The translations under genes were made by a program, and so were the position numbers. The notes beneath the pieces were generated by a model that ran no database searches, was not told where the DNA came from, and saw only the letters and a list, made by a program, of their open reading frames with translations. From an uncultured Burkholderiales bacterium (GTDB lineage: Bacteria; Actinomycetota; Acidimicrobiia; IMCC26256; JAGPDB01), in the NCBI GenBank assembly GCA_964561855.1, contig CAZLQP010000004.1, positions 1,341 through 65,340 of the forward strand: a stretch of 64,000 nt of DNA, written 5' to 3'. Below, piece by piece: positions 1-59,963 of the stretch. Within the stretch, counting starts at the first letter, position 1. The number at the start of each line of letters is the position of its first letter.

Positions 1-872
1 GTTGATGTACCTCCAATAAATACAGGTCCTGCTCCAAGTGCCAAAACTCCTTTGGAGATATTTCCGGAGAGCCCATTTACGTCAGCTGCTTGAGGAGTAA
101 GATCAGTAACACCATCTTTGCCTAGCCCAACAATATTTCCAAAAACGCTAACGTTTGTTCCTGCAATGTTTATACCGCCAGTCGTTGTGTTGTCCGGACC
201 TTCTGCACCGACGACATTTCTATCAGCTGGGTTTGTTCCACCGATTAGGATATTGTCAGCATCAGGATGAACGCTAATACCTACGTCGGTAAGTCCACCA
301 CCGATAGATAAGCCTGTAGGCTCAACTCCAACATAGTTTCCTTGGAATACTCCATTATCGAAATTCGTTTGGATACAAGCAAGCGAACATTCTGTAATCG
401 AAAGTCCTTTAATCGTCACATCATCTGCGCCTACATCAAGAACGTTAGATGAAATATTTGTAGCAACAATATGAATAAGAATGGTTCCATTCATTGGATT
501 TGGGGCAACAGCGGTGTTGGCGCTTGCACCTGGATTGTTAGTGTATCCATCGATTATAAGTGCTTCACTTATTGTCGGTAAGTCCGTTCCAGGGGTAATC
601 GTTTGAACTCCGCCACTGGGGATTGTGAATTCGATTGTGTCTGCGCCTTCATTTGCGTTGGCTTCTTCGATTGCAGCTCTTAATGTGCACTCGCCACTGT
701 TGGCGGTTTCGCATATTCCATCGCCTTGGTTGGCGTCGGATTCATCTGTTGTTACATTTACTGTAAAAGTCGCTGGCGCTGCTTGCGCTTGGGGTGTTGT
801 TGAGAACGTTATTAGGCCAATAAGTAAAACTAGAGCTATGTTTATTATTAACTTTGTGAATAGTTGTTTCAT
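1..872 (-). CDS. Secreted parallel-beta-helix surface protein, N-terminal part only (gene continues past window start); tandem paralog of 869..3250
   Basis: Absent from the ORF track because it runs off the edge. ATG at 872..870 (minus) overlaps the TGA of the upstream paralog (ATGA junction 869..872). My translation is open to position 1. It starts MKQLFTKLIINIALVLLIGLITFSTTPQAQA/APATFTVNVTTDESDANQGDGICETANSGECTLRAAIEEANANEGADTIEFTIP: a signal peptide, then the same Cys-containing N-domain, then G/N/V-rich beta-helix-like repeats. Confidence 0.75.
   Translation of the reverse strand, partial: MKQLFTKLIINIALVLLIGLITFSTTPQAQAAPATFTVNVTTDESDANQGDGICETANSGECTLRAAIEEANANEGADTIEFTIPSGGVQTITPGTDLPTISEALIIDGYTNNPGASANTAVAPNPMNGTILIHIVATNISSNVLDVGADDVTIKGLSITECSLACIQTNFDNGVFQGNYVGVEPTGLSIGGGLTDVGISVHPDADNILIGGTNPADRNVVGAEGPDNTTTGGINIAGTNVSVFGNIVGLGKDGVTDLTPQAADVNGLSGNISKGVLALGAGPVFIGGTS
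619..788. repeat. 170-bp near-identical tract shared with 2997..3166 (N-domain coding region of tandem paralogs)
   Basis: Hand alignment of 619..788 to 2997..3166 gives 3 mismatches. Flanking signal-peptide and downstream coding DNA is clearly diverged. The plus-strand ORFs 625..915 and 3003..3299 are antisense shadows of this tract. Confidence 0.9.
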
Positions 873-3250
873 TTTAAGGTCGCTTTTCTTGTTGGCCTCC
901 GTGCTGATCTGGTGATTATGGTTCCTATTAAAAGTGTAATTATTGTAAATGATAAGAGTGTTTGAATGTTATTGGCTCCGGTCGCAGGTAAAGTTCCTGT
1001 GACTGTGGTTGGATTTGAACCTGTTGGTGGTGAATCAGGGTTGTTTACTGGAGGTGAGCTTGAAGTAAATACTGCTGCGAGTCCGACTGGGTCGACGATT
1101 ATTCCGTTAGCAATACCATCATCATCGTATTCTCCGCCGTCCTCGATTGAGTATTGCATCAGGATCGCTGGGTTGCCGCTAATATCAACTTTTTCTACTG
1201 TTGCTTCTTCTACTACTTCAAAAGTTTCAGTGTTTGGTCGGTATTTGTGTACTTCGAAGTCGCTTATTTCTACATCAGCAAATACGTATTTAGATATTTC
1301 TACAGTGTCGCCAACTGAACAATTCAAAACAAAATCAGTTAATCCAAATGGGTATGTAAATCCTTCGTCTACTACGCCTAGAGAATCTTCTGTTAGAGAA
1401 GAAACTGAACCGTTAGCAGAACATCCTTGTGTGACAAATGTTACGTATGTTGAACCTATTATGTAAGTCGAAACTGTTGGTTGTAGTCGATCAGGAATCC
1501 CATCGTTATTACCATCTCCATTATTTGGCCCAGCATCTTCCACTTCATCAGTAATACCATCTGCATCGAAGTCAGTTACTGAGCCGATCTCGATGTTTGT
1601 CGAAAATTCTGACGTGCCGCCAAAACCTCCAACACCTGCTGAATTTAATGGTGTAACAGTTGCTGAAAGTGCTTTGTTGGTTATGTCGGATGCTGAGCTT
1701 AATGTTAGATCGAATTGTGTATTTCCAGTATCGACTGTAGTGCTACCAAGATAATTTTGTCCGGGACCAGATCCAAACACTGTAGATGCATCGTTTGCAA
1801 AAAATTCAACACGGTATTGATTGCTGTCAGAGCCTATTACATCTAAATCAAAATTGATGGAGAGTTGATCCCCGTCTTGAACCGCAGAATTTAGAACAGG
1901 TGCGCGAAGATAACTATTAGTCCTATTAACGTCGTTTCCAATGTTTGTTGGATTAGGTCCAGTGTCGAAGAAATTCTCAGGAGGACCTGAGGGTGCTCCA
2001 TCATATGAGCTGTGTAGTAAATCAATACCGATATTTGAATCACCAAAATCGTAATAGTCGAGAATTCCTACTTCGAAAATACTATTTCCTAATATTGCGA
2101 CATTTTGTCCTATCAGGCTCATCTCAAAGAGAGGGATGTCTACCCCGAGGTTTCCAATAGCGGCACCTTTAGTTCCTACGATTATGTTTCCTTCGTTTTC
2201 GCCTGTGCCCCCAATTAGGGTATTGGAAGCTCCACCATAGAGAGATATCCCAGCGCCAGAATTGAGGTTTGCATTTTCAGAACCTGTGTAATCTCCACCA
2301 ATGATATTGCCCTGGACAATATTTTGGACTCCAGCGATTACTAATTGAGTACCAGGAATACCTGAAATAACATTTGCCTGACCTAATGATGGCCCACCTA
2401 CAATAAGGTTTGATCTTGGAGGACCTTGATTGAGTGGCTGAACTACACCAGCTCCACCTGTTTCTAGAGTTTCACCAACAATGCTGTTGACTCCGTTTCG
2501 ACCTATACCAATATAATTACCGTAAATTGAAACATTAGAACATAGTATTTCAATTGATGTGTTGCTTCCAACAACAATATTTCTATCACTTGGATCTGTT
2601 CCTCCTATAGTGATGTTTGAACAGTTATTTTCTAAGCCGATACCGCGGTATTCAAGTAATGAATTGGGTGATTGGCCAGTCGCGTCTGTACCAAGATAGT
2701 TTCCTTCGATCGATATATTATTCGCACTACCCAAGCTTCCGTCTACATAGATCGCATTTACAAATCCATCGATTGCCAATCCTCGGATAGTCACATCATC
2801 AGCTCTTACTTGGAGACCGTCCCAGAATTGCCCAGAAGCATTATCGATTTCTATATTGATCACACTATTAATAGGATCAGGGCTTACTGCAGAATTTTCA
2901 GTCGCGCCAGGATTGTTGGAATAGCCATCAATGGTAAGTGCTTCAGTAATAGCTGGCAATATCGAACCAGGCTGAATAAGGTGAACTCCTGATCCTGGGA
3001 TTGTGAATTCGATTGTGTCTGCCCCTTCATTTGCGTTGGCTTCTTCGATTGCAGCTCTTAATGTGCACTCGCCACTGTTGGCGGTTTCGCATATTCCATC
3101 GCCTTGGTTGGCGTCGGATTCATCTGTTGTTACATTTACGCTAAAAGTCGCTGGCGCTGCTTGCGCACTGTTTGTATTAACAAAAGAGCTCAATCCCACT
3201 AGAGCAATTAGAGCAAAATTGATCATTAGAGTTTTCAAAATTTTCACCAC
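869..3250 (-). CDS. LPXTG-anchored cell-surface protein with parallel beta-helix repeats
   Basis: 793-aa ORF with signal peptide (MVKILKTLMINFALIALVGLSSFVNTNSAQA) and N-domain GDGICETANSGECTLRAAIEEANANEGADTIEFTIPG. Many G/N/I-rich repeats follow (NISIEGNYLGTD, NVSIYGNYIGIG, NIVQGNIIGGD), then a D-rich segment DFDADGITDEVEDAGPNNGDGNNDGIPD. The C-terminus has LPATG, a hydrophobic helix and an RRPTRK tail, which is a sortase sorting signal. Confidence 0.85.
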   Translation of the reverse strand: MVKILKTLMINFALIALVGLSSFVNTNSAQAAPATFSVNVTTDESDANQGDGICETANSGECTLRAAIEEANANEGADTIEFTIPGSGVHLIQPGSILPAITEALTIDGYSNNPGATENSAVSPDPINSVINIEIDNASGQFWDGLQVRADDVTIRGLAIDGFVNAIYVDGSLGSANNISIEGNYLGTDATGQSPNSLLEYRGIGLENNCSNITIGGTDPSDRNIVVGSNTSIEILCSNVSIYGNYIGIGRNGVNSIVGETLETGGAGVVQPLNQGPPRSNLIVGGPSLGQANVISGIPGTQLVIAGVQNIVQGNIIGGDYTGSENANLNSGAGISLYGGASNTLIGGTGENEGNIIVGTKGAAIGNLGVDIPLFEMSLIGQNVAILGNSIFEVGILDYYDFGDSNIGIDLLHSSYDGAPSGPPENFFDTGPNPTNIGNDVNRTNSYLRAPVLNSAVQDGDQLSINFDLDVIGSDSNQYRVEFFANDASTVFGSGPGQNYLGSTTVDTGNTQFDLTLSSASDITNKALSATVTPLNSAGVGGFGGTSEFSTNIEIGSVTDFDADGITDEVEDAGPNNGDGNNDGIPDRLQPTVSTYIIGSTYVTFVTQGCSANGSVSSLTEDSLGVVDEGFTYPFGLTDFVLNCSVGDTVEISKYVFADVEISDFEVHKYRPNTETFEVVEEATVEKVDISGNPAILMQYSIEDGGEYDDDGIANGIIVDPVGLAAVFTSSSPPVNNPDSPPTGSNPTTVTGTLPATGANNIQTLLSFTIITLLIGTIITRSARRPTRKATLK
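2997..3166. repeat. Second copy of the 170-bp near-identical tract (see 619..788)
   Basis: Same alignment as above. Encodes APATF(S/T)VNVTTDESDANQGDGICETANSGECTLRAAIEEANANEGADTIEFTIP. Confidence 0.9.
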
Positions 3251-3378
3251 TAGATACAGCCTTTCAAGACATATATTGTTTCGGCACTCTACTGCTTAGC
3301 CTATACAGTCCATTTGGCTCATTTATTGATTCCGTTCGTCGACAACAGGTATCGATAGATGTCCGAATTGACCGAAAA

Positions 3379-3396
3379 GGAGGGTCAGTCCTCCGG
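3379..3396. repeat. Single REP core, family A (GGAGGGTCAGTCCTCCGG)
   Basis: Exact match to the core found at 25601..25618, 37340..37357 and 58080..58097. Lies in the intergenic region between the surface-protein gene start and the rpf leader. Confidence 0.8.
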
Positions 3397-12784: not shown

Positions 12785-12861
<77 letters not shown>

Positions 12862-13324: not shown

Positions 13325-13460
13325 AGTGCAGTTCTCCGGTCTTTTACTATTCAGTGTTTACATTATTTGAATCAGCCAAAGAGCTAGTTTAGAGACTAAT
13401 TTTTGCTTGGTTTTCTCTGAAATCTAAGGAAACTGACCTAAATCAGATTTATTATTGGTG

Positions 13461-13521
13461 TCGTCGGGCTTATAACCCGAAGGTCGTTGGTTCAAATCCA
13501 ACCCCCGCCACCAATTAAACC
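13461..13521 (+). repeat. Duplicated 3' portion of the tRNA-fMet gene (att-like direct repeat of 12809..12869)
   Basis: 61 nt identical to 12809..12869 except one base in the anticodon loop (CTCATAA vs CTTATAA). There is no 5' acceptor/D-arm, so it is not a functional tRNA. It is followed by its own hairpin ACCGCAC..GTGCGGT plus a T-run (13519..13546). Confidence 0.85.
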
Positions 13522-18937: not shown

Positions 18938-19576
18938 ATGACTTTAAAGGTTATCTCTAAGATTTGGTTCTCAATCCTTGCTCTTTCTGTTGCATGGGTG
19001 ATACCGGTCCAGGCGGTGTTGAATTTCCAGGAAGAAACCGGGATGTTTGCTGAGAATTATGCTCGGGTGTTTAATATGTTTTGGTTCTTTACAATTCTGT
19101 CTAATATCTTGGTGGGCTACGTAAGTTATCGAATTGTATTAAGTGGGGTCGAACAAGGTGCGAGGTTCAATGTTGCAAAGCACACTGCTTTAGTTGCTAT
19201 AACTGTTACGGGAATTGTTTATCATTTGCTCTTAGCTGCAGATGCGAATCTCAGTGGCCTAAATGTCGTTACCGACTTTTTCTTACATACTTTTATTCCG
19301 CTTGGTTATGTACTTGGCTGGATAATCTTCAACAATCGTGGTCAAGTGAATGCGAAGGTTGCAGGAAAGTCTTTGTTGTTTCCTATTATTTGGGCAGTGG
19401 CTGTCATGATTCGCGGACCGATTGTTGATTATTATCCATACAATTTTATGGATGTAAGAGATCTTGGGTATGCAGAGGCGCTTATAACCATGGGATTTGT
19501 AACTTTGTTTTTTGTAGCCTTAGCCTTCGGCTACTTTCTTCTCGACAAACTCTTAGAGAAAAGGTCCGTCCTCTGA
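18938..19576 (+). CDS. Integral membrane protein (FAR-17a/AIG1-like / Pr6Pr-like, tentative)
   Basis: Six hydrophobic helices. FWFFTILSN and DYYPYNFMD resemble that family as I recall it. The stop codon TGA (19574..19576) lies inside the left arm of the 19557..19645 palindrome. Confidence 0.55.
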   Translation: MTLKVISKIWFSILALSVAWVIPVQAVLNFQEETGMFAENYARVFNMFWFFTILSNILVGYVSYRIVLSGVEQGARFNVAKHTALVAITVTGIVYHLLLAADANLSGLNVVTDFFLHTFIPLGYVLGWIIFNNRGQVNAKVAGKSLLFPIIWAVAVMIRGPIVDYYPYNFMDVRDLGYAEALITMGFVTLFFVALAFGYFLLDKLLEKRSVL

Positions 19577-19645
19577 ATCTTGCGATAAATTGCACTAATG
19601 TCGCTAATACAAGTTATCGCAAGATTCAGAGGACGGACCTTTTCT
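19557..19645. repeat. Perfect 31-bp inverted repeat (family D, GGTCCGTCC core) acting as bidirectional terminator between convergent genes
   Basis: AGAAAAGGTCCGTCCTCTGAATCTTGCGATA (19557..19587) is the exact reverse complement of 19615..19645, with a 27-nt spacer. It overlaps the stop codons of both flanking genes. Confidence 0.85.
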
Positions 19646-20691
19646 CAGTCGTCGGATTTGGTCATGTGGAAGATGCCGGTTGCATTGCCTGCATCAAAAG
19701 CTAGATCGACGCTACCATCTTCTTTGTTTTTTCTAGTGATGAATTCAAAGAATGAGCCTGGAACTTCTTTATGCACAATCTCATTGTCATCTAATCTGAA
19801 ACTTCTAGTGATCGGATCTGCTTTGTATGCGGTCTGCATTATATTTCCTGTCTTAGAAACCTCGACAGTATCTTTCATTGGATAACCGAGTTGTTTTTGT
19901 TCTTCAGATAATGCCATTACGTCAGCAACTCTATCTGTCGCATGGTTAAAAGCATTTCCTTCAGTTGCAATCCAAGCCATTTCTGCAGAATGCTGTAACA
20001 GCTCGTTATAATCTGACAAAAGTGGTACAGGATGTTGACGATCAAAAGCGCGAGCGATGTTTTGTAAAAGATTCCCACATTTATTTCGTGGAAGGTATCC
20101 GTTTTCACCAATGAAACTCAGATCATCAAGAGTCTCTTGGTTAAGAGGATCGATTGATTCTTCAACAACATCAATTACAGCTTTTTCAAAATCATCATTT
20201 TCGAACTTGTCAGGATGAAGTTCACTCACAAAATATTGAGGTATCACTTGAGGATAATCAGCATGAGTGTAACTTCTACCTGTCATCTTGAGTTTTGTTA
20301 AAGGATATGTCTCATTGTGGAAATATCCGAGTGGAATTAAGATTCGCGTAAGCGATTCCTCTCCTACAGGTAAATCTCCGTTTCGTAGATGGTCTACTGT
20401 TCTCACTGCGCCGTGATCCAAAAAAATTGTTTCTCCCTCAGAGTGTTTTTGCTCAAAGTACTTCTGTGCATGAGGTACACGTTCGAGCAAATCAGCATAC
20501 AAAACTAGAAACAAAGAAAATGCGATATGGGCCCTTGAAACGTTCTCATCTCCGAAAGTACCAAGAGGTTCAGGGATCAGAATCGTTTGAGAGAATTCGT
20601 CGACTCTTTTGCCGCCAATTATTTCTCGGATGATATTAAAAACTGTAATGTCAGTGCTAAATAATGACATTTCGTTGGAACTGTTTTCCAT
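19645..20691 (-). CDS. hglS: DUF1338-family protein, 2-oxoadipate dioxygenase/decarboxylase (HglS)-like
   Basis: About 350 aa with the FLDHGAVRT metal-binding motif characteristic of DUF1338/HglS. Genomic context is other lysine-catabolism genes. Confidence 0.6.
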   Translation of the reverse strand: MENSSNEMSLFSTDITVFNIIREIIGGKRVDEFSQTILIPEPLGTFGDENVSRAHIAFSLFLVLYADLLERVPHAQKYFEQKHSEGETIFLDHGAVRTVDHLRNGDLPVGEESLTRILIPLGYFHNETYPLTKLKMTGRSYTHADYPQVIPQYFVSELHPDKFENDDFEKAVIDVVEESIDPLNQETLDDLSFIGENGYLPRNKCGNLLQNIARAFDRQHPVPLLSDYNELLQHSAEMAWIATEGNAFNHATDRVADVMALSEEQKQLGYPMKDTVEVSKTGNIMQTAYKADPITRSFRLDDNEIVHKEVPGSFFEFITRKNKEDGSVDLAFDAGNATGIFHMTKSDD

Positions 20692-23323: not shown

Positions 23324-24913
23324 ATGAGTTACACAATACCTACAAGTCTAAAAACAAAGACACCGCCATCGACTTCTGCGATTGCAGATGAGGTGTTGGT
23401 AGTGCTCAAGAAGTTAGATATCGATCTAGCTGCATATGGATTTGAGATGCTAAAAGTACCTAATGCTAATCTTGGAACAAGTGACGGTAAAGTGTCTTTG
23501 CGTACGCCTATAACTGGTCAGGCCTATGCAACCATTAGTGCAACGACATCAACTGATATCGATTTGGCACTTAATGATTCTGGCAACGCATTTAAAGATT
23601 TCCGAGCACTCCCTGCTCCTGTAAGAGGAGAGTTCGTGCGTGTACTTGGAACATTGCTGCGTGAATATAAATCAGAACTTGGTTTTTTGGTATCTATTGA
23701 AGCTGGGAAGATAGTTTCTGAAGGACTAGGTGAAGTCCAAGAAATGATCGACATTGCCGATTTCGCTGTTGGACTATCACGTCAACTTTATGGCAAAACA
23801 ATAGCTTCAGAACGACCACAACATGCGATGCGTGAAACTTGGCATCCATTAGGGCCAGTAGGTGTGATCACTGCATTCAATTTTCCAGTAGCGGTTTGGG
23901 CATGGAATGCATGTATTGCATTTGTCTGTGGAGATAGTGTCGTATTCAAACCCTCAGACAAGACTGCAGTTTCCTCGATCGTGATTCATGAATTGGCAAA
24001 ACGTGCAGCCGCACAGTGTGGGATAAGTCAAGATGTGTCTCAATTAATACTAGGTGGGGTTGAACCTGCAGTTTTACTGGCAGAAGATGACAGGATTTCG
24101 TTGTTGAGTGTGACTGGTTCAGTTGCAGCTGGCGCTGCTTTGGCTCCGATTGTTAGCGCGCGTTTTGGGAAATCCCTATTGGAGCTCGGTGGAAACAATG
24201 CAATGATAGTAACTCCCAGTGCAGATCTTGATTTGGCTTTGAGAGCTATAACATTTTCGGCTGCAGGTACAGCAGGTCAGCGATGCACAACATTGCGCAG
24301 ACTTATTGTGCATAAGTCAGTTAAAGAACAACTAGTTGCAAAGTTGCAAAGTGCATATGACTCTCTTGAAGTAGGCAACCCACTTTGCGATTCGGTTTTA
24401 GTAGGTCCATTGATAGAAGAAAAATCACATAATGCTTTGACTGTTGCGCAAGAAAAACTTGGAGTTGAATCAAAAAGAGAATTCTTTGGTGATTTTGATA
24501 ATGCTTACTATCACCGTCCGACAATTTCTTTTGTTGATAAGAATGAAGAGTTGCTACAACATGAAACTTTCGCGCCTTTGCTTCATGTTGTTGAATATGA
24601 AGAGATTGAAGAAGCGATTGAAATTAACAATAGTGTTCCGCAAGGGTTGTCATCTTCGATCTTTACAAATGATGTGAGAGAAGCAGAATTATTTCTATCT
24701 GCTGTAGGTTCAGACTGCGGTATTGCAAATGTGAATATTGGGCCGTCGGGTGCAGAAATCGGCGGAGCGTTTGGTGGAGAGAAACAAACTGGTGGCGGAA
24801 GAGAATCTGGATCCGATGCTTGGAAAGCATATATGCGCAGAGCGACAAACACTGTCAACTACGGAACTGAACTCCCCCTAGCCCAAGGCGTCCAATTCAC
24901 TCCGGAGGACTGA
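23324..24913 (+). CDS. pcd: ALDH7-type aldehyde dehydrogenase (alpha-aminoadipic semialdehyde / piperideine-6-carboxylate dehydrogenase)
   Basis: ELGGNN and catalytic Cys GQRCT. The C-terminal [45 protein letters not shown] is nearly identical to the antiquitin terminus (...[43 protein letters not shown]). The last codons CCG GAG GAC TGA are REP sequence. Confidence 0.9.
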   Translation: [529 protein letters not shown]

Positions 24914-25618
24914 CCCTCCAAAAGGTTTAAAAGGGACTAATTATCCCTTGATCCACTTAGTTAGATTGCATAATCTTTTAATATGCCATCTAGAAATGCA
25001 ATTAAGTGTTATTCTTCGTATAGTTATTACCATATTTACAATAGAGGAATCGAAAAAAAGAACATATTCGAAAGCGCCGAAAATAAAGAAAAATTTCTCC
25101 GACTGGTTTCTAGATACTTGGACACCGAAAATACTGAATGTGATCGCGACGGTGTTCCGTACAGAAAGTTTAATGATCAAATTGAATTACTTAGCTATTG
25201 CATAATGGACAATCATTTTCACTTTTTAATTTGGGTAGCAGATGATGCTAGATCGCTAAGCGAATTCATGAGGAGTCTTGGAAGCGCCTATACGATGTAT
25301 TTCAACAAAAGATATGATCGTGTCGGTCCACTTTTTCAAAGTCGATATAAAGCCGTGACAATAGGGAATGACAGTCAGCTGCTTCATATAACGCGATATA
25401 TTCACTTAAATCCTGGCCCGTCTTCGTTCGAATATGCTTACTCAAGTCTCGGTCGCTATCTTCAGAAGAGTTCTAACGACGATGTGTTGAACTGCTTAAA
25501 TCCAAAAAGAATCTTGGAGTTGTTTGAAATTGGAAGCTACGAGGATTTTTTAAGAAGTGAATTGAACACTGAATCTACTTGAGTGTGAAATGTACCTTTT
25601 GGAGGGTCAGTCCTCCGG
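24902..25618 (+). mobile_element. RAYT unit: REP-associated tyrosine transposase gene flanked by inverted REPs (family A)
   Basis: CCGGAGGACTGACCCTCCAAAAGG at 24902..24925 and its exact reverse complement at 25595..25618 bracket the 199-aa Y1/HUH transposase ORF. Confidence 0.85.
24983..25582 (+). CDS. REP-associated tyrosine transposase (RAYT; IS200/IS605-like Y1 HUH transposase, COG1943 type)
   Basis: YHIYNRGIEKKNIF, HUH motif in LLSYCIMDNHFHFLIW, FMRSLGSAYTMYFNKRYDRVGPLFQSRYKA, and catalytic Tyr motif RYIHLNP. This is the canonical RAYT motif order. Confidence 0.88.
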   Translation: MPSRNAIKCYSSYSYYHIYNRGIEKKNIFESAENKEKFLRLVSRYLDTENTECDRDGVPYRKFNDQIELLSYCIMDNHFHFLIWVADDARSLSEFMRSLGSAYTMYFNKRYDRVGPLFQSRYKAVTIGNDSQLLHITRYIHLNPGPSSFEYAYSSLGRYLQKSSNDDVLNCLNPKRILELFEIGSYEDFLRSELNTEST

Positions 25619-26989
25619 GGCCTCCGGGAGGGTGGAGAGGATTAGGGTTATGTCTTGAAGGGTTGTTGTTGGGTTGATGATGCAGAATCGGATTACGGTT
25701 TCACCTTTGTGGGTTGTTGGTACGATAAAGGCAAATTCTTTTTGCATTAAACTTTCACACCAGTTTTTATAGTCTTTGGTATCAAAACCTTTTACTTTAA
25801 AAAGTATGACGCTCAACTCAGGTTCTATAACAAGTTCGAGTCTCTCATCGTTTTGAATAAGCTCGGCAGCTTGTCGAGATACATCAATGCATTGTGTGAC
25901 GGCTTGCTTAATTGCATTAGTGCCATGGACTGCCAGTGTAAACCAAAGGGTAAGTCCTCTAGCTCGTCTTGTTAAATGATGTGCATAGTCCGATGGATTC
26001 CAATCAGGAGTTTCGTGAATTGCATCAAGGTATTCTGCATCTTGAGCATGAGCTTTTCGCGCAACTTTGGGATCTTTGTATATCAGTGCTGCGCAATCGA
26101 AAGGGGAGAACAACCATTTGTGGGGATCAATAACGAATGAGTCAGCATTTTCCACACCTTTGAATAAATGCCTTGTCTTATCACACAAGATTGCTGCGCC
26201 ACCATAGGCTCCATCGACATGAAACCAAAAATCATGGTCTTTACATATTTCTGATGTCATATCTAAGTCATCAACATAGCCAGTATTGGTTGCACCTGCA
26301 GATGCAACAACTGCAAAAACTCTATCTAATTCTTCAGGATCAAGATTTTTTATAGTCTTTTGTAATTCTTCGCCAGTTAGGCGAAAGTTTTCATCGCCTT
26401 TTACTTTGATGACATCGATGTCCATTGCTTTAGCAGCTAGGCGAATAGATGAATGTACGCTAGGTGTCGCCAATATAGCAAGGCGCTTTTTCTTGTACTG
26501 AGGTTTTGCTTTTCTAAATCTATATCTTGCAGCAATTAAACCTGATAGATTCGCAGCTGTTCCTCCTGAGACGAATACTCCTCCAGATGTTTTGGGAAAG
26601 CCAATCATGTCAGAGATAAATCTCAAAGCCTGATTTTCAGCAGCGACAACTCCAGCGCCTTCGAGCCAAGTGCCTCCAAACATTGAACTTGCAGAAACCA
26701 CAAGGTCGATTAACGAAGCGGCATTTGCTGGGGCATTGGGTACAAAAGCTAGATAGCGTGGATGGTCAGTAGAAAGTGTTGCGGGAGCGACTATGTTTTC
26801 AAATACATCAAACGCTTTTTGTGGACCTAAACCGTCTTCGTTAATGACGCCTTCGAGTTTGGGTAGAAGCTCCTCTGCAGATACTGGAGTATCTAAAGTG
26901 GGTGGATCTTCTTTTAATCTTTCAATTGAATATTTAGCAATGCGTTCAGCAAGCTCATTAGCTTCATCGTCGAAATGATGTAAATCCAC
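25607..26989 (-). CDS. Group II pyridoxal-phosphate-dependent amino-acid decarboxylase
   Basis: 460 aa with GTG start. Motifs: SGGTAANL, HVDGAYGG, DPHKWL (PLP-lysine). The C-terminal ...EAPED* is encoded by the REP at 25595..25618. Confidence 0.85.
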   Translation of the reverse strand: MDLHHFDDEANELAERIAKYSIERLKEDPPTLDTPVSAEELLPKLEGVINEDGLGPQKAFDVFENIVAPATLSTDHPRYLAFVPNAPANAASLIDLVVSASSMFGGTWLEGAGVVAAENQALRFISDMIGFPKTSGGVFVSGGTAANLSGLIAARYRFRKAKPQYKKKRLAILATPSVHSSIRLAAKAMDIDVIKVKGDENFRLTGEELQKTIKNLDPEELDRVFAVVASAGATNTGYVDDLDMTSEICKDHDFWFHVDGAYGGAAILCDKTRHLFKGVENADSFVIDPHKWLFSPFDCAALIYKDPKVARKAHAQDAEYLDAIHETPDWNPSDYAHHLTRRARGLTLWFTLAVHGTNAIKQAVTQCIDVSRQAAELIQNDERLELVIEPELSVILFKVKGFDTKDYKNWCESLMQKEFAFIVPTTHKGETVIRFCIINPTTTLQDITLILSTLPEAPED

Positions 26990-37285: not shown

Positions 37286-37357
37286 CCGGAGGACTGACCC
37301 TCCAAAAGGGACGAATCGCCTGAGCGATTAGTCCCTTTTGGAGGGTCAGTCCTCCGG
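37286..37357. repeat. REPIN (inverted REP doublet), family A
   Basis: CCGGAGGACTGACCCTCCAAAAGGGACGAATCGC-CTGA-GCGATTAGTCCCTTTTGGAGGGTCAGTCCTCCGG. 72 bp, with one mismatch in a stem of about 34 bp. Confidence 0.9.
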
Positions 37358-39368: not shown

Positions 39369-39467
39369 TCAGGAAAAATTTTTAGAAAAAGTGCTTTAAA
39401 TACCGTATTTGTTGATTCAAATGTGCAAGTATTTCTATACAACCACAAATCCATTGGAGGATATAAA

Positions 39468-39923: not shown

Positions 39924-39954
39924 CCTTTTTCTGGGGGTCTGATCCCCCAAAAGG
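39924..39954. repeat. Single REP, family B (GGGGGTCTGATCCCCC) nested in a CCTTTT/AAAAGG stem
   Basis: CCTTTTTCTGGGGGTCTGATCCCCCAAAAGG directly after the hup stop. Same core as 59039..59054. Confidence 0.8.
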
Positions 39955-39960
39955 TATATA

Positions 39961-39998
39961 AGGTCCGCCCTTTTCGAGAGAAAAGGACGGACTTTTTT
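39961..39998 (+). terminator. Intrinsic terminator after hup (family D-like GGTCCGCCC hairpin)
   Basis: AGGTCCGCCCTTTT-CGAGAG-AAAAGGACGGACT followed by TTTTTT. Confidence 0.7.
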
Positions 39999-44427: not shown

Positions 44428-44441
44428 GACTTTAATGAGGA

Positions 44442-46431: not shown

Positions 46432-46438
46432 TTTATTT

Positions 46439-46482
46439 CTATAGGGTCTGACCCTATTTACATATAGGGTCAGACCCTATAG
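46439..46482. repeat. REPIN-like doublet, family C (ATAGGGTCTGACCCTAT)
   Basis: CTATAGGGTCTGACCCTAT-TTACAT-ATAGGGTCAGACCCTATAG, between convergent pyrB and a small membrane gene. Near-identical to 52573..52616. Confidence 0.88.
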
Positions 46483-46485
46483 AAA

Positions 46486-46746
46486 TTAGTAGCCGAGCTT
46501 GCGGTCTTCTTTTTCGGCAGCTGTTATTGCGTAGCCAAAAATTATGGGTAGTGGCAAGATGATGCAGCTTGCAGTAAAGCTGATAATCGACACCCAGGTA
46601 AGCCAGACTGGCCAACCAGTTGCTAAGCAAACGAAAAAAGCGACTATCGATATAACCATCAGACCATAGCCAATGCGCTTAAAGAAGCTGACTTTTTGCC
46701 TTATAGCTTCACGTTTTTCTAAGACCGGATCATCCATTAGCCTCAA
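46486..46746 (-). CDS. Small membrane protein (2 TM)
   Basis: 86-aa ORF with two long hydrophobic helices. Confidence 0.5.
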   Translation of the reverse strand: MRLMDDPVLEKREAIRQKVSFFKRIGYGLMVISIVAFFVCLATGWPVWLTWVSIISFTASCIILPLPIIFGYAITAAEKEDRKLGY

Positions 46747-48307: not shown

Positions 48308-48362
48308 TCGTTACTGAATATCAATAGGAAAGTAAACAACTAAGTAACTAGACTTGGTACTT

Positions 48363-51300
48363 ATGTCATCTAACGCAAAACAAAACAATATCTATCCTGA
48401 GGTCACTTCTTCTCCAAATATTCCTGCGATAGAAGAAAGCATTATTGAGTTTTGGAATGACAACAAAATATTTCAAGCATCTGTCGAAGGTAAGAAGAAC
48501 AATCCTAAAGACGAAAAAGATCAAGGTGAATATGTTTTTTATGACGGACCTCCATTCGCAAATGGGCTCCCGCACTATGGTCACTTGATTACAAGTTTTG
48601 TTAAAGACACAGTTCCTAGATATCAAACAATGAAAGGTAAACGTGTTCCACGTCGTTTCGGATGGGACTGTCATGGTTTGCCTGCAGAGATGTTAACTGA
48701 AAAAGAACTTGGAGTTTCTGGTCATATTGCGATCAACGAGTATGGCATCGATAAGTTTAACGATGCTTGTCGAACTTCAGTATTACAGTTCACGAATGAA
48801 TGGCGTCACTATGTAACACGAATGGCGCGTTGGGTTGATTTTGATAATGACTACAAGACACTCGACATAGATTATATGGAAAGTGTTATTTGGGCTTTTA
48901 AACAACTCCATGAAAAAGGTCTGGTCTACGAAGGTATGCGCGTGTTGCCTTATTCTTGGGCTGCAGAAACAGTGTTATCGAATCATGAGACCAAACTCGA
49001 TGATTCATATCGTGAACGCGACGATCCAGCGTTGACTGTCGGATTTAAAGTTCGAGAGTTTTCAAAAGAAGCGCAAAAAAAGATCGACATTGTTCCACAA
49101 GGGATGTTAGATGGTGCTGAGATAAATATTCTCGCATGGACAACAACACCTTGGACGTTGCCTTCGAATTTAGCTTTGGCAGTTGGTCCTGAAATCGAAT
49201 ATAGCGTCGTTGTTGGTGAAGACAATGAAAATCCAACTGCATTTATTTTGGCAACGGCAATGCTTGAAAAATATGAGAAAGAATTGCAGGGATTCAAGCC
49301 AGTTACTACCTTGCAAGGTTCAGATCTTGTAGGGACAACCTATGTGCCGATGTTTGATTACTTTGCTGATACTCAAAATGCTTTCCAGGTCTTTGGTCCA
49401 GATTTTGTAACAACTGAAGATGGAACTGGTATTGTACACCTAGCTCCTTATGGTGAAGATGACTTTGCATTATTAACTGCAAATGATATTGAAATTCCTG
49501 TAGCAGTAGATGCTAAAGGCGAATTCGATTCAAGAGTTCCAGACTATCAAGGTCAACTTGTTTTTGATGCTAATGCAAATATTGTGCGCGACTTAAAAGA
49601 GCGTGGGGTAGTACTTCGTCATGATACATATCGCCACTCTTATCCTCACTGTTGGCGTACTGATCAGCCATTGATCTATCGCCCAATGAGCTCTTGGTTT
49701 GTTGAAGTAACGAAAATCAAAGATCGAATGTTGGAACTCAACAAAGATATCAAGTGGATACCCGATCATGTTCAAGAAGGTGCGTTCGGGATGTGGCTTG
49801 AAGGTGCTCGTGATTGGTCGATTTCTCGGAACCGTTTTTGGGGTTCACCAATTCCTGTCTGGAAATCTGATGACCCCAATTATCCACGAATGGACGTCTA
49901 TGGTTCCCTCGATGAAATCGAACGCGATTTTGGTAAACGTCCAACAGATCTACACCGTCCGGAAATAGATACTTTTACTAGACCTAATCCAGATGATCCG
50001 ACTGGAAAATCAACAATGCGCCGAGTTGAGGAAGTGTTTGACTGTTGGTTCGAATCAGGATCGATGCCATTTGCGCAAGTGCATTATCCATTTGAAAACA
50101 AAGAGTGGTTTGATACTCATTTCCCAGGAGATTTTATTGTTGAATACATCGGCCAGACGCGCGGATGGTTTTATACTTTGCATGTTTTAGCAACAGCTTT
50201 GTTTGATCGAGCAGCGTTTAAAGAATGTGTATCTCATGGAATTGTTTTGGGTTCTGATGGAAGAAAAATTTCTAAACGTTTAAAGAACTATCCAGATCCT
50301 CTAGAGATGTTTGACGAGTTTGGATCTGATGCTATGCGCTGGTTATTGCAAAGCTCAGCTATATTGCGCGGTCAAAATCTGATTGTTGATCGAGATTCAT
50401 TTGCGACTGCTACTCGAAAAGCTATCTTGCCTTTATGGAACTCTTATTACTTCTTTACGTTATATGCCAATAGCGATGGAATAGAGGCGAAACACATAAC
50501 TCAGTCTTCCAATATTTTGGATACTTACATTTTGGCAAAGACACGTAAATATATTGAAGAGTTAACTGTGTCGATGGATGCAAATGATATGTTCAAAGCA
50601 AGTGAACTTACGGAATCTCATTTTGATGTTTTAACGAACTGGTTTATTCGTAGAAGTCGTGAACGTTTTTGGCGACATGAAAAAGATCAAGACAAACAAG
50701 ATGCCTATGACACTTTGTTTACTGTATTGAATCTGATCTGTCGTGCAGTAGCGCCATTGTTGCCCTTGGTGTCAGAGAGTATATGGCGTGGTCTCAATGC
50801 ACAAGATGTTGAGCAGAACAATGGATTGAGCGTTCATCTCGAGACTTGGCCTCTAGAAGATGCACAAGCAATTGCGGAAGATGACGAGTTGATCGCTGCA
50901 ATGGATATGGCGCAAGAAATTTGTTCGAACGCATTATCTATCCGACGTGCAAATAATTTACGTACTCGACTTCCATTAAGCGAGGTTGTCATTTCAGGTC
51001 CGAATGCAAAACGTGCGGAGCGATTTTCCGACATCATCCGTGATGAAGTAAATGTGAAAAATGTGGTTGTTCAACTTGATGCAACAGAGCATGGAAAACA
51101 AAAACTGAATTTGGTGCCAAGTGTTATGGCTCCACGTCATGGTGAAAATGCAAAGAAAGTATTTGCCGGATACAAAAAGGGTGACTGGCAATTAGTTGAT
51201 AGCGTGATGACTGTTGGAGGAATAGAACTTCGGCCTGATGAATATGCTTTGGTGTTAGAACCAGAAAATGCTGATAGCTCTAGAGCATTAGATGACCGCG

Positions 51301-51620
51301 AGACAATTGTTACCTTGAATCTTGAAGTGACAAGTGAGCTTGAACTCGAGGGAATAGCTAGAGACGTTATTCGAGCTACGCAAGAGGCAAGAAAGACTGC
51401 GGATCTCAACATTACCGACCGAATTGTTTTGGAAGTTCAAGGCAACGAAAAAGCAGTCCAAGCAGTCGAAAAATTCGAAAACCTAATTTCCAAAGAAATC
51501 CTCGCCAACTCCATCTCCGCAATCTCCGGAGGACTGACCCTCCAAAACGGACAAAACGGAGAAGGTATAGTTGAAGTGGATGGAGCAGTCTTTAGTGTAA
51601 ATGTTGCCGTGAGTAAATAG
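48363..51620 (+). CDS. ileS: Isoleucyl-tRNA synthetase
   Basis: About 1085 aa with HIGH-type GLPHYGHL and KMSKS-type GRKISKRL; editing-domain and anticodon-binding regions of the expected length. ATG 48363 is preferred to TTG 48354. Confidence 0.95.
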   Translation: MSSNAKQNNIYPEVTSSPNIPAIEESIIEFWNDNKIFQASVEGKKNNPKDEKDQGEYVFYDGPPFANGLPHYGHLITSFVKDTVPRYQTMKGKRVPRRFGWDCHGLPAEMLTEKELGVSGHIAINEYGIDKFNDACRTSVLQFTNEWRHYVTRMARWVDFDNDYKTLDIDYMESVIWAFKQLHEKGLVYEGMRVLPYSWAAETVLSNHETKLDDSYRERDDPALTVGFKVREFSKEAQKKIDIVPQGMLDGAEINILAWTTTPWTLPSNLALAVGPEIEYSVVVGEDNENPTAFILATAMLEKYEKELQGFKPVTTLQGSDLVGTTYVPMFDYFADTQNAFQVFGPDFVTTEDGTGIVHLAPYGEDDFALLTANDIEIPVAVDAKGEFDSRVPDYQGQLVFDANANIVRDLKERGVVLRHDTYRHSYPHCWRTDQPLIYRPMSSWFVEVTKIKDRMLELNKDIKWIPDHVQEGAFGMWLEGARDWSISRNRFWGSPIPVWKSDDPNYPRMDVYGSLDEIERDFGKRPTDLHRPEIDTFTRPNPDDPTGKSTMRRVEEVFDCWFESGSMPFAQVHYPFENKEWFDTHFPGDFIVEYIGQTRGWFYTLHVLATALFDRAAFKECVSHGIVLGSDGRKISKRLKNYPDPLEMFDEFGSDAMRWLLQSSAILRGQNLIVDRDSFATATRKAILPLWNSYYFFTLYANSDGIEAKHITQSSNILDTYILAKTRKYIEELTVSMDANDMFKASELTESHFDVLTNWFIRRSRERFWRHEKDQDKQDAYDTLFTVLNLICRAVAPLLPLVSESIWRGLNAQDVEQNNGLSVHLETWPLEDAQAIAEDDELIAAMDMAQEICSNALSIRRANNLRTRLPLSEVVISGPNAKRAERFSDIIRDEVNVKNVVVQLDATEHGKQKLNLVPSVMAPRHGENAKKVFAGYKKGDWQLVDSVMTVGGIELRPDEYALVLEPENADSSRALDDRETIVTLNLEVTSELELEGIARDVIRATQEARKTADLNITDRIVLEVQGNEKAVQAVEKFENLISKEILANSISAISGGLTLQNGQNGEGIVEVDGAVFSVNVAVSK
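51526..51558 (+). repeat. Family A REP arm embedded in frame within the ileS coding sequence
   Basis: CCGGAGGACTGACCCTCCAAAACGGACAAAACGGA matches the 33-nt left REPIN arm (58026..58058) with about 4 mismatches. It is read as S-G-G-L-T-L-Q-N-G-Q-N-G. No right arm is present. Confidence 0.8.
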
Positions 51621-52130
51621 ATGCAAAGCGGCATTAGATTTCGCGAAGCTGATGAAGCGGATGTGAACACTATCGCTACTTTGCTTCAAGAACACTACGA
51701 GTTTATGCGTGAGACTTTTTCCCATACGAGGCATATTATTAGTTGGCCTCATTCGGACGTAGGTTTAGAGTTTGTTTCTAAATTTGTACCTGGAGATGAG
51801 TTGCATAAAAGTTGGATTGCTGAGGATGCTCAAGGCGCGGCTATTGGTTATTTGTTAGGAAAGATATATTCAACGGCTCATCGATCAGATAATCCAATTT
51901 CGGAAATAGATAATATTTTCATCACCAAAGCAGCTCGCGGGAAAGGCGTCGCAAAAAAACTTGTAAATCTTTTCAACGAATGGTCCTTGAAAAATAATGT
52001 TAAGCGAATGAAGGCACAAACTTACGCCGACAATTTTGATGCACATCAGTTCTATGAATCGTTGGGAATGAAGCAAATAGAAGTTATTTATGAAATACCA
52101 AAGTTTGAACTAGAAAGTCAGGTTAAATAA
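51621..52130 (+). CDS. GNAT-family N-acetyltransferase
   Basis: IFITKAARGKGVAKKLV (acetyl-CoA binding R/Q-x-x-G-x-G/A motif), about 169 aa. The start abuts the ileS stop. Confidence 0.8.
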   Translation: MQSGIRFREADEADVNTIATLLQEHYEFMRETFSHTRHIISWPHSDVGLEFVSKFVPGDELHKSWIAEDAQGAAIGYLLGKIYSTAHRSDNPISEIDNIFITKAARGKGVAKKLVNLFNEWSLKNNVKRMKAQTYADNFDAHQFYESLGMKQIEVIYEIPKFELESQVK

Positions 52131-52585
52131 TGAAACGAATTTCAGACTTCTTTGTCTTGTTGGCACAAGTGATAATCGGTTTTATATATGTTTCCTTCGC
52201 AGGTCCTTGGTCGGAAAATATAGTGATACTCCTAGTAGGTACAGTATTGATCGGTACTGGGATCGCATTGGGTATTCGCGGGATTTATGATCTACGTAAA
52301 AGTTTCGCTGTGCATCCCAAGCCTCACGAAAAAGCTGAGTTCATACAGACTGGGATCTATTCCTATGTAAGGCATCCAATGTATAGCGGTTTGATTTTGG
52401 TAGCGATTGGGTTCTTACTTGTTCGCTATAGTCAAGATCTACTCGTGATGTTTTTCTTTGCAATAGGATATTTAGCAATAAAAATCTATATTGAAGAGAG
52501 GTTTTTAAACTCATTCTTTGAAGATTACCGAGAATATTCAAAGAAAACTGGATGTATCTTTCCAAAACGCCTCTATAGGGTCTGA
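52130..52585 (+). CDS. Isoprenylcysteine carboxyl methyltransferase (ICMT)/phospholipid methyltransferase-family membrane protein
   Basis: 4 TM; GIYSYVRHPMYSGLIL and EERFL motifs. The stop TGA lies in the loop of the family C REP. Confidence 0.75.
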   Translation: MKRISDFFVLLAQVIIGFIYVSFAGPWSENIVILLVGTVLIGTGIALGIRGIYDLRKSFAVHPKPHEKAEFIQTGIYSYVRHPMYSGLILVAIGFLLVRYSQDLLVMFFFAIGYLAIKIYIEERFLNSFFEDYREYSKKTGCIFPKRLYRV

Positions 52586-52616
52586 CCCTATTTACAAATA
52601 GGGTCAGACCCTATAG
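52573..52616. repeat. REPIN-like doublet, family C
   Basis: CTATAGGGTCTGACCCTAT-TTACAA-ATAGGGTCAGACCCTATAG. Pairing extends to GCCTC/GAGGC (52569..52620). Confidence 0.88.
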
Positions 52617-52647
52617 AGGCGCTGTAGCTTCGACTAGTATTTAAGCC

Positions 52648-58025: not shown

Positions 58026-58097
58026 CCGGAGGACTGACCCTCCAAAAGGGACGAATCGCATGAACGATTCGTCCCTTTTGGAGGGTCAGTCCTCCGG
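58026..58097. repeat. REPIN, family A (perfect 33-bp stem)
   Basis: CCGGAGGACTGACCCTCCAAAAGGGACGAATCG-CATGAA-CGATTCGTCCCTTTTGGAGGGTCAGTCCTCCGG, located between divergent guaB and argF. Confidence 0.92.
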
Positions 58098-58135: not shown

Positions 58136-58160
58136 GTCTATGGAAATCATTGGGGGAAAC

Positions 58161-59048
58161 ATGGTTAAACATTTGCTAGATATTGACGATTTGTCGATCG
58201 ATGAAGTCAATCAGGTTTTAGATTTTGCATTGAATCCTGACGAGTCTAAGCCATTGAAAGATAAAGGCGTTGCGCTAATTTTTCAAAAGCCATCTTTACG
58301 CACACGCAACTCAATGGAAATGGCAGTGGTCCAATTAGGCGGACATCCCGTCTACATTCAAGATATGGAAGTTGGAATTGATTCACGTGAAAGTATTGAA
58401 GATGTAGTGATGTCTATGGCGCAATATCATGAGATTATTTGTGCGCGAGTTTTTGATCACCTAGTGCTCGAGAGAATGGCAAGCGTTGATGTTGCTCCCA
58501 TCGTTAATTTGCTGTCTGATTCCTCGCATCCGATGCAGGCACTAGCTGATCTATTGACAATGAAACAAGAATTCGGCGACTTGAAAAATAAGCGTGTTGC
58601 ATATATTGGAGATCCAAATAATGTTGCTAGATCACTAGCGATTATCGCAAAAATGTTTGGTATGGAATTTACGATTGCTACGCCAAATGAATATCGTTTT
58701 AGCGAAGATGATTGCAGAGTAATTGATAAATATGGAGGCATCGATTTAACAACTGACGATCCTAAAATCGCCGCGAAAAATGCTGACGTTTTGTACACCG
58801 ATGTTTGGGTGTCAATGGGTGATGAAGAAGAATCAGATATTCGCAAAAGAATGTTCGATGGCTATTGTATCGACTCACAATTGATGTCTGTCGCGAATGA
58901 AAATGCGATCGTGATGCATTGTCTTCCTGCTCATCGAGGACAAGAAATTACTGATGAAGTAATGAGATCAACGCAATCAAGAATTTTTCTTCAAGCACAA
59001 AATCGCATGCACTCGGCCAGAGGCCTCCTCCGCCTTCTGGGGGTCTGA
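58161..59048 (+). CDS. argF: Ornithine carbamoyltransferase
   Basis: KPSLRTRNSME, HPMQALADLLT, DVWVSMG, HCLPAHRGQEI. ATG 58161 is preferred to 58140 given the promoter/SD geometry. The last codons CTG GGG GTC TGA are family B REP sequence. Confidence 0.85.
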   Translation: MVKHLLDIDDLSIDEVNQVLDFALNPDESKPLKDKGVALIFQKPSLRTRNSMEMAVVQLGGHPVYIQDMEVGIDSRESIEDVVMSMAQYHEIICARVFDHLVLERMASVDVAPIVNLLSDSSHPMQALADLLTMKQEFGDLKNKRVAYIGDPNNVARSLAIIAKMFGMEFTIATPNEYRFSEDDCRVIDKYGGIDLTTDDPKIAAKNADVLYTDVWVSMGDEEESDIRKRMFDGYCIDSQLMSVANENAIVMHCLPAHRGQEITDEVMRSTQSRIFLQAQNRMHSARGLLRLLGV

Positions 59049-59099
59049 TCCCCCAAAACAGACAAATCGCATTTGCACCTTTTGGGGAATCAGACCCCC
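59039..59099. repeat. REPIN-like doublet, family B, spanning the stop codons of both convergent genes
   Basis: GGGGGTCTGATCCCCCAAAA-(21 nt)-TTTTGGGGAATCAGACCCCC, with one mismatch between the arms. Confidence 0.88.
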
Positions 59100-59908
59100 A
59101 GATCAAAGGATTGGATTAGGGTGAGGACTTGATCGATCGAATCCGGGTGAGCACAAACTAGCGAGGTGGGGCAGAGCTCGCCTGTGTCGGGGTCGATATC
59201 GAGAGATTCGAATTTGTCGCCATTAGGTTTTCTTATTTCTGCTCCGGCAGCTATTGCACAAGCAGTTCCGGCAGCTATTTCAGCGCCATAATCATTGTGA
59301 ACAATCATTGCTTGGACTCCACCTTTTGCAAAAGAGACCCAGTCCGCAGTTGGCGCCCATGTAGAAAGTACTCGTCCAGTATTTCTTACTAAGTATTCCC
59401 GAAACCTAAGGGCCTCTTCTTGCTCATCATCTTTTAGATAGCCAATCGACATACCAAAAGTGCTTTTGAGTAAATCAACGACAGGGGTAACGGCAGTGTT
59501 TTGTTCTTCACCAACTACACCACAGTGAAAAGTTTTTAACTGGCCTTGTCCGATAACTCCCAAAACAGGTTTGTTATTTTTTGTGAGTGCAATACAACTT
59601 CCATACAGAGGCATTGCATAGGCGAAATTATTTGTTCCATCTAACGGGTCGATATGCCATGCATAATCAGAATTTTGTTGGTAGGTTTCGAGTTCCTCGC
59701 CAAAGATAGTTATATCTGAAAAATTTTCTATCAAAATATCACGAATTATCTTTTCGGCTTCGATGTCGGCATCAGTGGTGACATCGTGGCCTTGTTCGGC
59801 AATGTTTTTTTCTAACAAAGTGCCAAAGCGTGAATCTAGGTATTCAATTGCATGGTCGATAGCTTCACAGGCCACTTTTTTTGCTTGTTCAATGTCGATG
59901 TCAGTCAC
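59090..59908 (-). CDS. Inositol monophosphatase family protein (SuhB/ImpA/HisN-like)
   Basis: EELE..., WHIDPLDGTNNF, and a WAPTADW region, 272 aa. The C-terminal ...DLGV* is encoded by the REP arm. Confidence 0.82.
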   Translation of the reverse strand: MTDIDIEQAKKVACEAIDHAIEYLDSRFGTLLEKNIAEQGHDVTTDADIEAEKIIRDILIENFSDITIFGEELETYQQNSDYAWHIDPLDGTNNFAYAMPLYGSCIALTKNNKPVLGVIGQGQLKTFHCGVVGEEQNTAVTPVVDLLKSTFGMSIGYLKDDEQEEALRFREYLVRNTGRVLSTWAPTADWVSFAKGGVQAMIVHNDYGAEIAAGTACAIAAGAEIRKPNGDKFESLDIDPDTGELCPTSLVCAHPDSIDQVLTLIQSFDLGV

Positions 59909-59926: not shown

Positions 59927-59963
59927 AAGGGTCCGTCCTTTTCCTTGAAAAGGACGGACCCTT
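59927..59963 (-). terminator. Hairpin terminator after aroA (family D core GGGTCCGTCC)
   Basis: AAGGGTCCGTCCTTTT-CCTTG-AAAAGGACGGACCCTT, immediately 3' of the aroA stop on the minus strand. Confidence 0.7.

Follow-up and report, generated by a model that had tools for sequence, protein, structure and literature searches.

Can a small transposase gene, framed by an inverted repeat that recurs elsewhere in the same DNA, be the centre of a REP/RAYT system in an actinobacterium? Repetitive extragenic palindromes (REPs), their inverted doublets (REP doublets forming hairpins, REPINs) and the REP-associated tyrosine transposases (RAYTs) have been studied almost entirely in Proteobacteria. The question is raised by a 64-kb stretch of contig CAZLQP010000004.1 (the window), in which a first-pass annotation, made from the letters alone, saw a 199-residue RAYT between its own inverted REPs, and proposed that a domesticated single-copy enzyme maintains a REPIN population in an AT-rich actinobacterial genome. 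The locus is very probably a REP/RAYT system of the REPIN type, and its host an Acidimicrobiia-like actinobacterium whose compact genome has 41% G+C. A system of this kind is already known; the lineage is new.

The repeats around the gene form a perfect inverted pair of 25 nt at 24902-24926 and 25594-25618, the flanking arrangement expected of a RAYT. The first-pass annotation had marked a 24-mer and its exact reverse complement here, as well as two inverted doublets and two singlets further away, and all of these positions are recovered; the repeat around the gene is really one nucleotide longer, and each of its two copies overlaps the stop codon of the gene next to it. The 24-mer, CCGGAGGACTGACCCTCCAAAAGG, is found exactly on the + strand at 24902-24925, 37286-37309 and 58026-58049 and on the − strand at 25595-25618, 37334-37357 and 58074-58097, with a one-mismatch copy at 51526-51549 (+) and an exact 18-nt core at 3379-3396 (−). 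This makes eight copies at six loci (family 1) against an expectation of 0.00, no match having been found in 100 dinucleotide-preserving shuffles. A profile of the 33-nt arms used with nhmmer returns exactly these eight copies (E from 2e-11 to 1e-8), six of which are identical over 24 nt.

The full family-1 unit is a 33-nt arm, CCGGAGGACTGACCCTCCAAAAGGGACGAATCG, as read from the arms printed with their flanks. Its head folds as the hairpin GGAGG-ACTGAC-CCTCC, with a 5-bp stem and a 6-nt loop; CC(GG) and AAAAGG are the conserved ends of the unit, and the bases beyond them differ among the copies. The left REP (24902..24942, +) consists of CCGGAGGACTGACCCTCCAAAAGG followed by the rest of the arm, broken by a 9-nt insertion, and the right REP (25594..25618, −) is the exact reverse complement of the left 25 nt. 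Both doublets are 72-nt near-perfect palindromes made of exact copies, with DNA folds of -43 and -44 kcal/mol (z = -15 and -16). They have the architecture of a REPIN: a repeated unit of inverted 33-nt arms, 94-100% complementary, separated by a short spacer. The doublet at 37286..37357 has arms of 33-35 nt and a loop of 4-6 nt and fills the 81-nt gap between two co-directional genes; that at 58026..58097 has perfect 33-nt arms and lies in the divergent region between an IMPDH gene and an OTCase-family gene. One single arm (51526..51558, +) is in frame in the 3' part of the isoleucyl-tRNA synthetase (IleRS) gene 48354..51620, where it encodes SGGLTLQNGQ. The other (3364..3396, −) lies between divergent genes; it keeps the 18-nt head exactly, and its tail has diverged.

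Other origins for such repeats were considered. The sequences outside the arms are unrelated to one another and segmental duplication, named beforehand as an outcome that would undermine the REPIN interpretation, is therefore excluded. No repeat matches a known RNA family in Rfam, and a CRISPR array is rejected because the repeats lack regular spacing.

The enzyme is encoded by the open reading frame (ORF) 24983..25582 (+). The motif YHIYNRG is followed by NHFHFL, which holds the HUH motif (H78-F-H80), and by RYIHLNP, which holds the catalytic tyrosine, Y139. A search against the Pfam Y1_Tnp model, proposed as a check on the first-pass annotation, gives E=5e-12 and 46 bits against a gathering score of 23, and the sole NCBIfam match is the RAYT equivalog NF047646 (REP_Tyr_transpos). 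An AlphaFold (AF2) model built on the alignment of homologues has a mean pLDDT of 93.3; among PDB structures, Foldseek ranks first 4ER8_A, E. coli TnpA-REP with a REP hairpin (E=5e-6, TM 0.54/0.64, 163 columns, ∼13% identity in the structural alignment), ahead of the transposase structures of ISDra2, IS608 and IS200. In an hhalign comparison with E. coli RayT (from NC_000913), NHFHFL pairs with EHMHCI and RYIHLNP with DYIYINP. Over 40 homologues, the 199-residue protein included, 26 columns are invariant, among them H17, R21, G22, N77, H78, H80, Y103, G115, R138, Y139, H141, N143 and P144. The protein also has an extra C-terminal helical segment. Sequence, predicted structure and conservation together point to a single-domain Y1 HUH enzyme that is closest to RAYTs and sits on a divergent branch.

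The setting of the gene bears on whether this enzyme is a resident or a visitor. By tblastn it is single-copy in the window. It stands between an aldehyde dehydrogenase (Aldedh) gene and a pyridoxal phosphate (PLP)-dependent decarboxylase gene, and no tnpB is among its neighbours. Three metagenome contigs carry its best homologue (P0002, 52% identity) in the equivalent position, following genes for Sacchrp_dh, FAD-oxidase and Aldedh. The neighbouring Aldedh is 73% identical to that of this relative, compared with 52% for the transposase, which points to a gene inherited vertically at a fixed site and evolving faster than its neighbour. Comparison of these sequences thus yields the signature of a domesticated RAYT that the first-pass annotation had supposed; RAYTs that evolve faster than their neighbours were also reported by Nunvar et al. 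(PMC2817692).

The repeats differ from relative to relative. The P0002 orthologue is bracketed by a different inverted repeat, GGGGTTCCACCTCCCATTT. The three independent contigs that carry it (L053, L054 and L055) all end inside the right-hand repeat, ∼28 nt past the gene (L053 5351-5369), which suggests that this repeat is multicopy in the relative's genome and breaks assemblies there. A second relative (L051), whose IleRS is 79% identical, has another variant, TAAGGTCCGTCCTTACAAAAGG, three times in 16 kb. In a more distant syntenic relative (L139-L141; decarboxylase 69% identical), the place between Aldedh and decarboxylase is taken by an SBP_bac_3 gene with no RAYT there, and no comparable palindromes are found in 13 kb. 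Homologues of the transposase occur in 16 of 72,556 plasmid records, at no more than 40% identity, and in one phage record. Across the window and its relatives, the single copy, conserved site, vertical inheritance, faster evolution and co-variation of REP and RAYT are those expected of a RAYT.

The window is ∼41% G+C throughout, it encodes an Rpf-type transglycosylase domain, and the nearest named relatives of its IleRS and decarboxylase are metagenome-assembled genomes (MAGs) of Acidimicrobiia. From these sequences the host is probably a member of the Acidimicrobiia, in agreement with the actinobacterial, AT-rich host first proposed.

The association of gene and hairpin extends beyond the window. 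A protein search finds 842 homologues at E<=1e-3, the nearest of which are only 45-55% identical; the closest are for the most part from groundwater metagenomes and MAGs of Saccharimonadales, and the two that carry a name belong to Candidatus Saccharimonadales MAGs. Hairpin repeats stand on both sides of the gene in the homologue loci L052, L056 (from a Saccharimonadales MAG, GCA_046350615.1) and L057. A clade-wide analysis added 80 further metagenomic loci and left 72 with adequate flanks: in 32 of the 72, the 250 nt upstream and the 250 nt downstream share an exact inverted match of 12 nt or more, while the longest match over 20 shuffles reached 12 nt in eight of the 72. The motif GG[AT]CNGN1-2CC, counted over 84 homologue loci, has a density of 4.3 per kb at distances of up to 120 nt from the gene and of 0.31 per kb elsewhere, a 14-fold difference. 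Upstream of the gene the strongest hairpins lie ∼30-60 nt from the start codon, and downstream of it 0-30 nt from the stop codon; their usual form is a stem ending ..GG/CC.. with a loop of 5 nt. Automatic calls of hairpin orientation proved too strict, leaving 55 of 85 loci unclassified, and what is said of orientation below is qualitative.

Three other palindrome families in the window are built like family 1, with a G-rich stem, a loop that usually contains CTGA, and members in the form of doublets and a singlet. Family 2 has the family-1 architecture with the stem changed to GGGGG/CCCCC: its singlet, CTGGGGGTCTGATCCCCCAAAA, lies at 39931..39952 (+), and its doublet at 59036..59102. Family 4 consists of two doublets, one of CTATAGGGTCTGACCCTAT and its complement at 46435..46486, between convergent genes, and one at 52568..52621. 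Family 3, whose membership is less certain, is a 91-nt palindrome with the core GTCCGTCC at 19556..19646; related hairpins of this core group lie at 39959-39995 and 59931-59959. No RAYT flanked by family 2, 3 or 4 is present in the window, and these families would depend on the enzyme described here or on RAYT paralogues elsewhere in the genome.

Comparison with L051 (window 46429-46490 against L051 7950-7960) shows the 52-nt doublet of family 4 at 46435-46486 to be a clean insertion: in L051 the same two convergent genes lie a few bases apart. A search of relatives for empty sites had been suggested at the outset. Presence or absence at orthologous sites is the sign of REPIN mobility; it is seen here for a doublet of family 4. 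For a second filled/empty candidate (window 44427-44442 against L051 5885-5960), the alignment is too poor to give boundaries and it was not used.

The repeats abut or overlap the 3' ends of genes because intergenic spacers are tiny, and repeat units, mostly through the CTGA of their loops, supply the TGA stops of at least six genes. The left REP holds the stop (24911-24913) of the Aldedh gene 23324..24913, and the right REP that (25607-25609, −) of the decarboxylase gene 25607..26989 (−). The loop TGA of the second family-4 doublet is the stop (52583-52585) of gene 52130..52585, and the two loop TGAs of the family-2 doublet end the convergent genes 58140..59048 (+; stop 59046-59048) and 59090..59908 (−; stop 59090-59092). 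The family-3 palindrome holds the stop (19574-19576) of gene 18938..19576. Pairs of genes share their repeat-encoded ends, PED* twice and GV* twice. The Aldedh has gained three residues (PED) in this way, its L053 orthologue stopping three codons earlier, just before that genome's own REP, and the decarboxylase has gained about five, its 17 orthologues ending ∼5 residues earlier. Beyond the right REP, window 25610-25640 reads CCGGGGCCTCCGGGAGGG, the opposite strand of which repeats the CCGGAGG of the REP head; this stretch, which contributes to the longer decarboxylase tail (PEAPED), may be what is left of an older REP copy.

Inside the IleRS gene, the arm at 51526 occupies the variable C-terminal region. 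The L051 IleRS carries the REP variant of its own genome at the aligned position and in the same frame (L051 12998-13024), and orthologues at 75% identity or below have no insert. It is possible that the site is an insertion hot spot, and also possible that the heads of the repeats are converted in place; a comparison by eye of the tails of the IleRS copies with the family consensuses does not discriminate between independent insertion and conversion. This copy within a gene and the capture of stop codons are the most unusual aspects of the system.

Several observations weigh against a REP/RAYT system. The NF047646 score of 48.3 bits leaves the protein outside that family by its 80-bit cut-off; on the same model 179 bits are reached by E. 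coli RayT and 38-47 bits by four homologues of the 199-residue protein. Searches of PDB sequences with phmmer and with a 40-sequence profile give no true match. Nunvar et al. describe a conserved N-terminal Thr and the motif NP(L/V)(R/K)xG after the catalytic tyrosine as specific to RAYTs (PMC2817692). The first-pass annotation had credited the protein with the complete motif set, which stands for YHIYNRG, NHFHFL and RYIHLNP and fails for these two: there is no N-terminal Thr, and RYIHLNPGPS keeps NP only, N143 and P144 being the only conserved part of the motif within the homologue clade. No unpaired GTAG or CGTC tag, the mark of the REP super-families of Di Nocera et al. (2013, PMC3733652), is present at the palindrome end of these REPs. 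Flanking hairpins in the clade occur in direct as well as inverted orientation, and the direct form is the arrangement of IS200/IS605. REP families that flank RAYTs are dispersed genome-wide, often in more than 100 copies (Nunvar 2010, PMC2817692; Bertels 2017, PMC5581495). When 185,579 species-representative genomes were scanned for an 18-mer, the matches were 49 chance singletons in high-G+C genomes and no genome had multiple copies, and a 22-mer scan of the JGI metagenomes gave no match; the source genome is therefore outside both collections. In its architecture and evolution the locus matches a REPIN-RAYT system, and it fails the stricter sequence definitions of a canonical RAYT and the definition of a REP by its GTAG tag.

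These observations have to be set against three other explanations. The direct hairpins would be at home in an autonomous insertion sequence (IS) of the IS200/IS605 type, of which the doublets and singlets would be derivatives resembling miniature inverted-repeat transposable elements (MITEs). The fold is indeed common to the TnpA structures of IS608 and ISDra2, the Pfam family is itself named 'Transposase IS200 like', and a few distant homologues are found on plasmids, one plasmid with three places. A multicopy gene, same-strand unlike hairpins and, often, a tnpB are the marks of such elements, whereas in the window the gene is single-copy, its ends are a perfect inverted repeat and no tnpB lies beside it. 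TnpA-REP is the best structural match, and no IS200/IS605 model in NCBIfam is matched. The same site in the relative is occupied by a 52%-identical copy next to a 73%-identical neighbour, which argues for long vertical residence and not for recent transposition, and makes an insertion sequence of this type very unlikely. Still further from probable is that the palindromes are regulatory or structural elements of the host (terminators, mRNA stabilisers or protein-binding sites) kept by selection, and that the Y1 gene landed between two of them. Most copies do lie at gene 3' ends or between convergent genes, a T-run follows the hairpin 39959-39995, and REPs have such roles in E. coli (PMC2817692, PMC3733652). 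Identity over 24-33 nt amid unrelated flanks, however, far exceeds what a terminator needs, and copies also lie in two divergent promoter regions and one coding sequence. Relatives at 73-79% protein identity have the whole family replaced, with the new sequence again bracketing the orthologous RAYT, and dozens of unrelated loci from metagenomes show the same association of gene and hairpin. It is possible that the repeats took on a host function secondarily.

A third explanation accepts RAYT and REPs as real and holds that the system is now inactive, the identical copies being left from a recent burst that has ended. A simple scan upstream of the ORF 24983..25582 found no sigma-70-type promoter, and the protein has lost a nearly invariant Trp (alignment position W171). 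Its reading frame is nevertheless intact, all 26 invariant positions of the family are kept, the catalytic residues among them, and the identity of six of the eight copies over 24 nt speaks for recent copying or homogenisation. A fossil is for these reasons unlikely. A REP/RAYT system is the explanation retained.

How such a system might work can be drawn from TnpA-REP and the IS200/IS605 transposases (PMC3333891, PMC3479197, PMC2817692). By this analogy we infer that the enzyme moves these repeats, and the strand used and the site of cleavage are proposed in the same manner. On single-stranded DNA, the enzyme would bind the hairpin GGAGG-ACTGAC-CCTCC together with the CC and AAAAGG tails conserved beside it. 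Cleavage would take place beside the hairpin via Tyr139, with His78 and His80 holding a metal ion, and the strands would then be rejoined. In this way 72-nt inverted doublets (REPINs) could be copied or moved, and single arms occasionally left behind.

A wider reading joins these strands, and is put forward as a speculation that is more probably wrong than right: a distinct, undescribed RAYT clade that uses minimal-hairpin repeats, with sister families maintained in the genome and built into its gene architecture. Members of the clade may be abundant in Saccharimonadales, of the candidate phyla radiation (CPR), and in groundwater metagenomes, and present in streamlined Acidimicrobiia. Their cognate hairpins may have a stem ending GG/CC and a 5-6-nt loop and lack the GTAG tag. 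One or a few enzymes may keep several sister families, with loop TGAs serving as stops and one arm lodged in IleRS. If this were true, the IleRS copy that matches each genome's own family would mean that the heads are converted in place at fixed sites, and in-place conversion would be direct evidence for RAYT-driven homogenisation, beyond insertion and decay.

Among known systems, the closest resemblance is to the REPIN-RAYT systems of Enterobacteria and Pseudomonas (4ER8; PMC2817692, PMC3116915, PMC5581495). Both have a Y1 HUH enzyme with a YIxxNP tyrosine motif, encoded between two inverted REPs, and REPs dispersed as singlets and as inverted doublets with long hairpins. In both, the gene is single-copy at a conserved site, its protein evolves faster than the neighbours, REP and RAYT change together between lineages, and plasmids are essentially free of the system. 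The differences lie in the details: the protein of the window is ∼13% identical to 4ER8, falls below the NCBIfam cut-off, has neither the N-terminal Thr nor NPV(K/R)xG, and at 199 residues carries the additional C-terminal helical segment. The REP head has a 5-bp stem and a 6-nt loop and no GTAG tag, and the host is a compact-genome actinobacterium in which the repeats overlap gene ends and are not strictly extragenic. RAYT groups are spread over up to 21 bacterial classes (Bertels et al. 2017, PMC5581495), and it is possible that the protein belongs to one of them. Full-text literature searches found no paper linking RAYTs with Actinobacteria or Patescibacteria.

The IS200/IS605 transposases (IS608 TnpA, 2VJV; ISDra2 TnpA, 2XM3) share the fold and the catalytic HUH and Tyr. 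They recognise sub-terminal DNA hairpins on single strands, as by analogy the present enzyme may do, and same-strand hairpins on both sides of the gene recur in some members of its clade. The structural match to them is weaker than that to TnpA-REP, and they differ from the perfect inverted ends, the single syntenic copy and the lack of tnpB found here. They also typically carry a Y...Q motif instead of YIxxNP, whereas the protein of the window has YIxxNP, in alignment with the Tyr motif of E. coli RayT.

In-frame palindromes are known from another setting, that of the Rickettsia palindromic elements (RPEs), where, as in the IleRS gene, a palindromic repeat is tolerated in frame in an essential gene of a reduced genome. 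Ogata and colleagues reportedly described RPEs in 2000 as inserted in frame in protein-coding genes. RPEs are ∼100-150 bp long and are not known to have an associated transposase, whereas the insert in the IleRS gene is a 33-nt arm, in a genome that has a cognate Y1 gene. RPE-1 is mentioned by Di Nocera et al. (2013, PMC3733652), who describe TIRYT/TIRtron systems, with RAYT-like genes flanked by non-GTAG repeats and moderately abundant matching repeat families, as well as occasional intragenic REPs, some of them shared in position by related species. The window resembles these in all of the above respects. Its flanks, however, are short REP-like hairpins (25-33 nt) and not long terminal inverted repeats (TIRs), the GGGGWSAS motif is absent, and phylum and protein clade differ.

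Three further features of the window are recorded for their own sake. A direct repeat of ∼150 bp, at 97% identity, is found at 640-790 and 3018-3168: one copy lies in the 5' part of the 793-residue gene 869..3250 (−), which has no Pfam domain, and the other just past the 3' end of this gene, perhaps within the 5' part of a tandem paralogue cut off by the window edge. Gene conversion between paralogues is a possible cause. A tRNA-Met gene at 12785-12861 is followed 650 bp downstream by a partial tRNA-like copy (13445-13502) that shares GGTTCAAATCCAACC, scores 31 bits in Rfam and is not called by ARAGORN; it could be a duplicated tRNA end left by an integrated element. Finally, an HU-like protein (39423-39923) has a lysine/alanine-rich repeat tail encoded by 15-nt periodic AAGAAAGCTCCAGCT-type repeats, as in actinobacterial HupB, and gene and repeats are also present in L051 at 124-624.

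The locus brings the association of transposase and repeat into a compact actinobacterial genome, with an enzyme from a divergent branch and much smaller hairpins. It offers a tractable comparison, in which three related lineages have different repeats, two of these bracket an orthologous RAYT, and one outgroup has neither, so that the co-evolution of repeat and enzyme can be studied. In practical terms, such repeats break metagenome assemblies and can mislead the calling of gene ends. For the organism, the locus displays how selfish or symbiotic repeats are accommodated where there is almost no intergenic space: by overlap with stop codons and in the variable tails of proteins.

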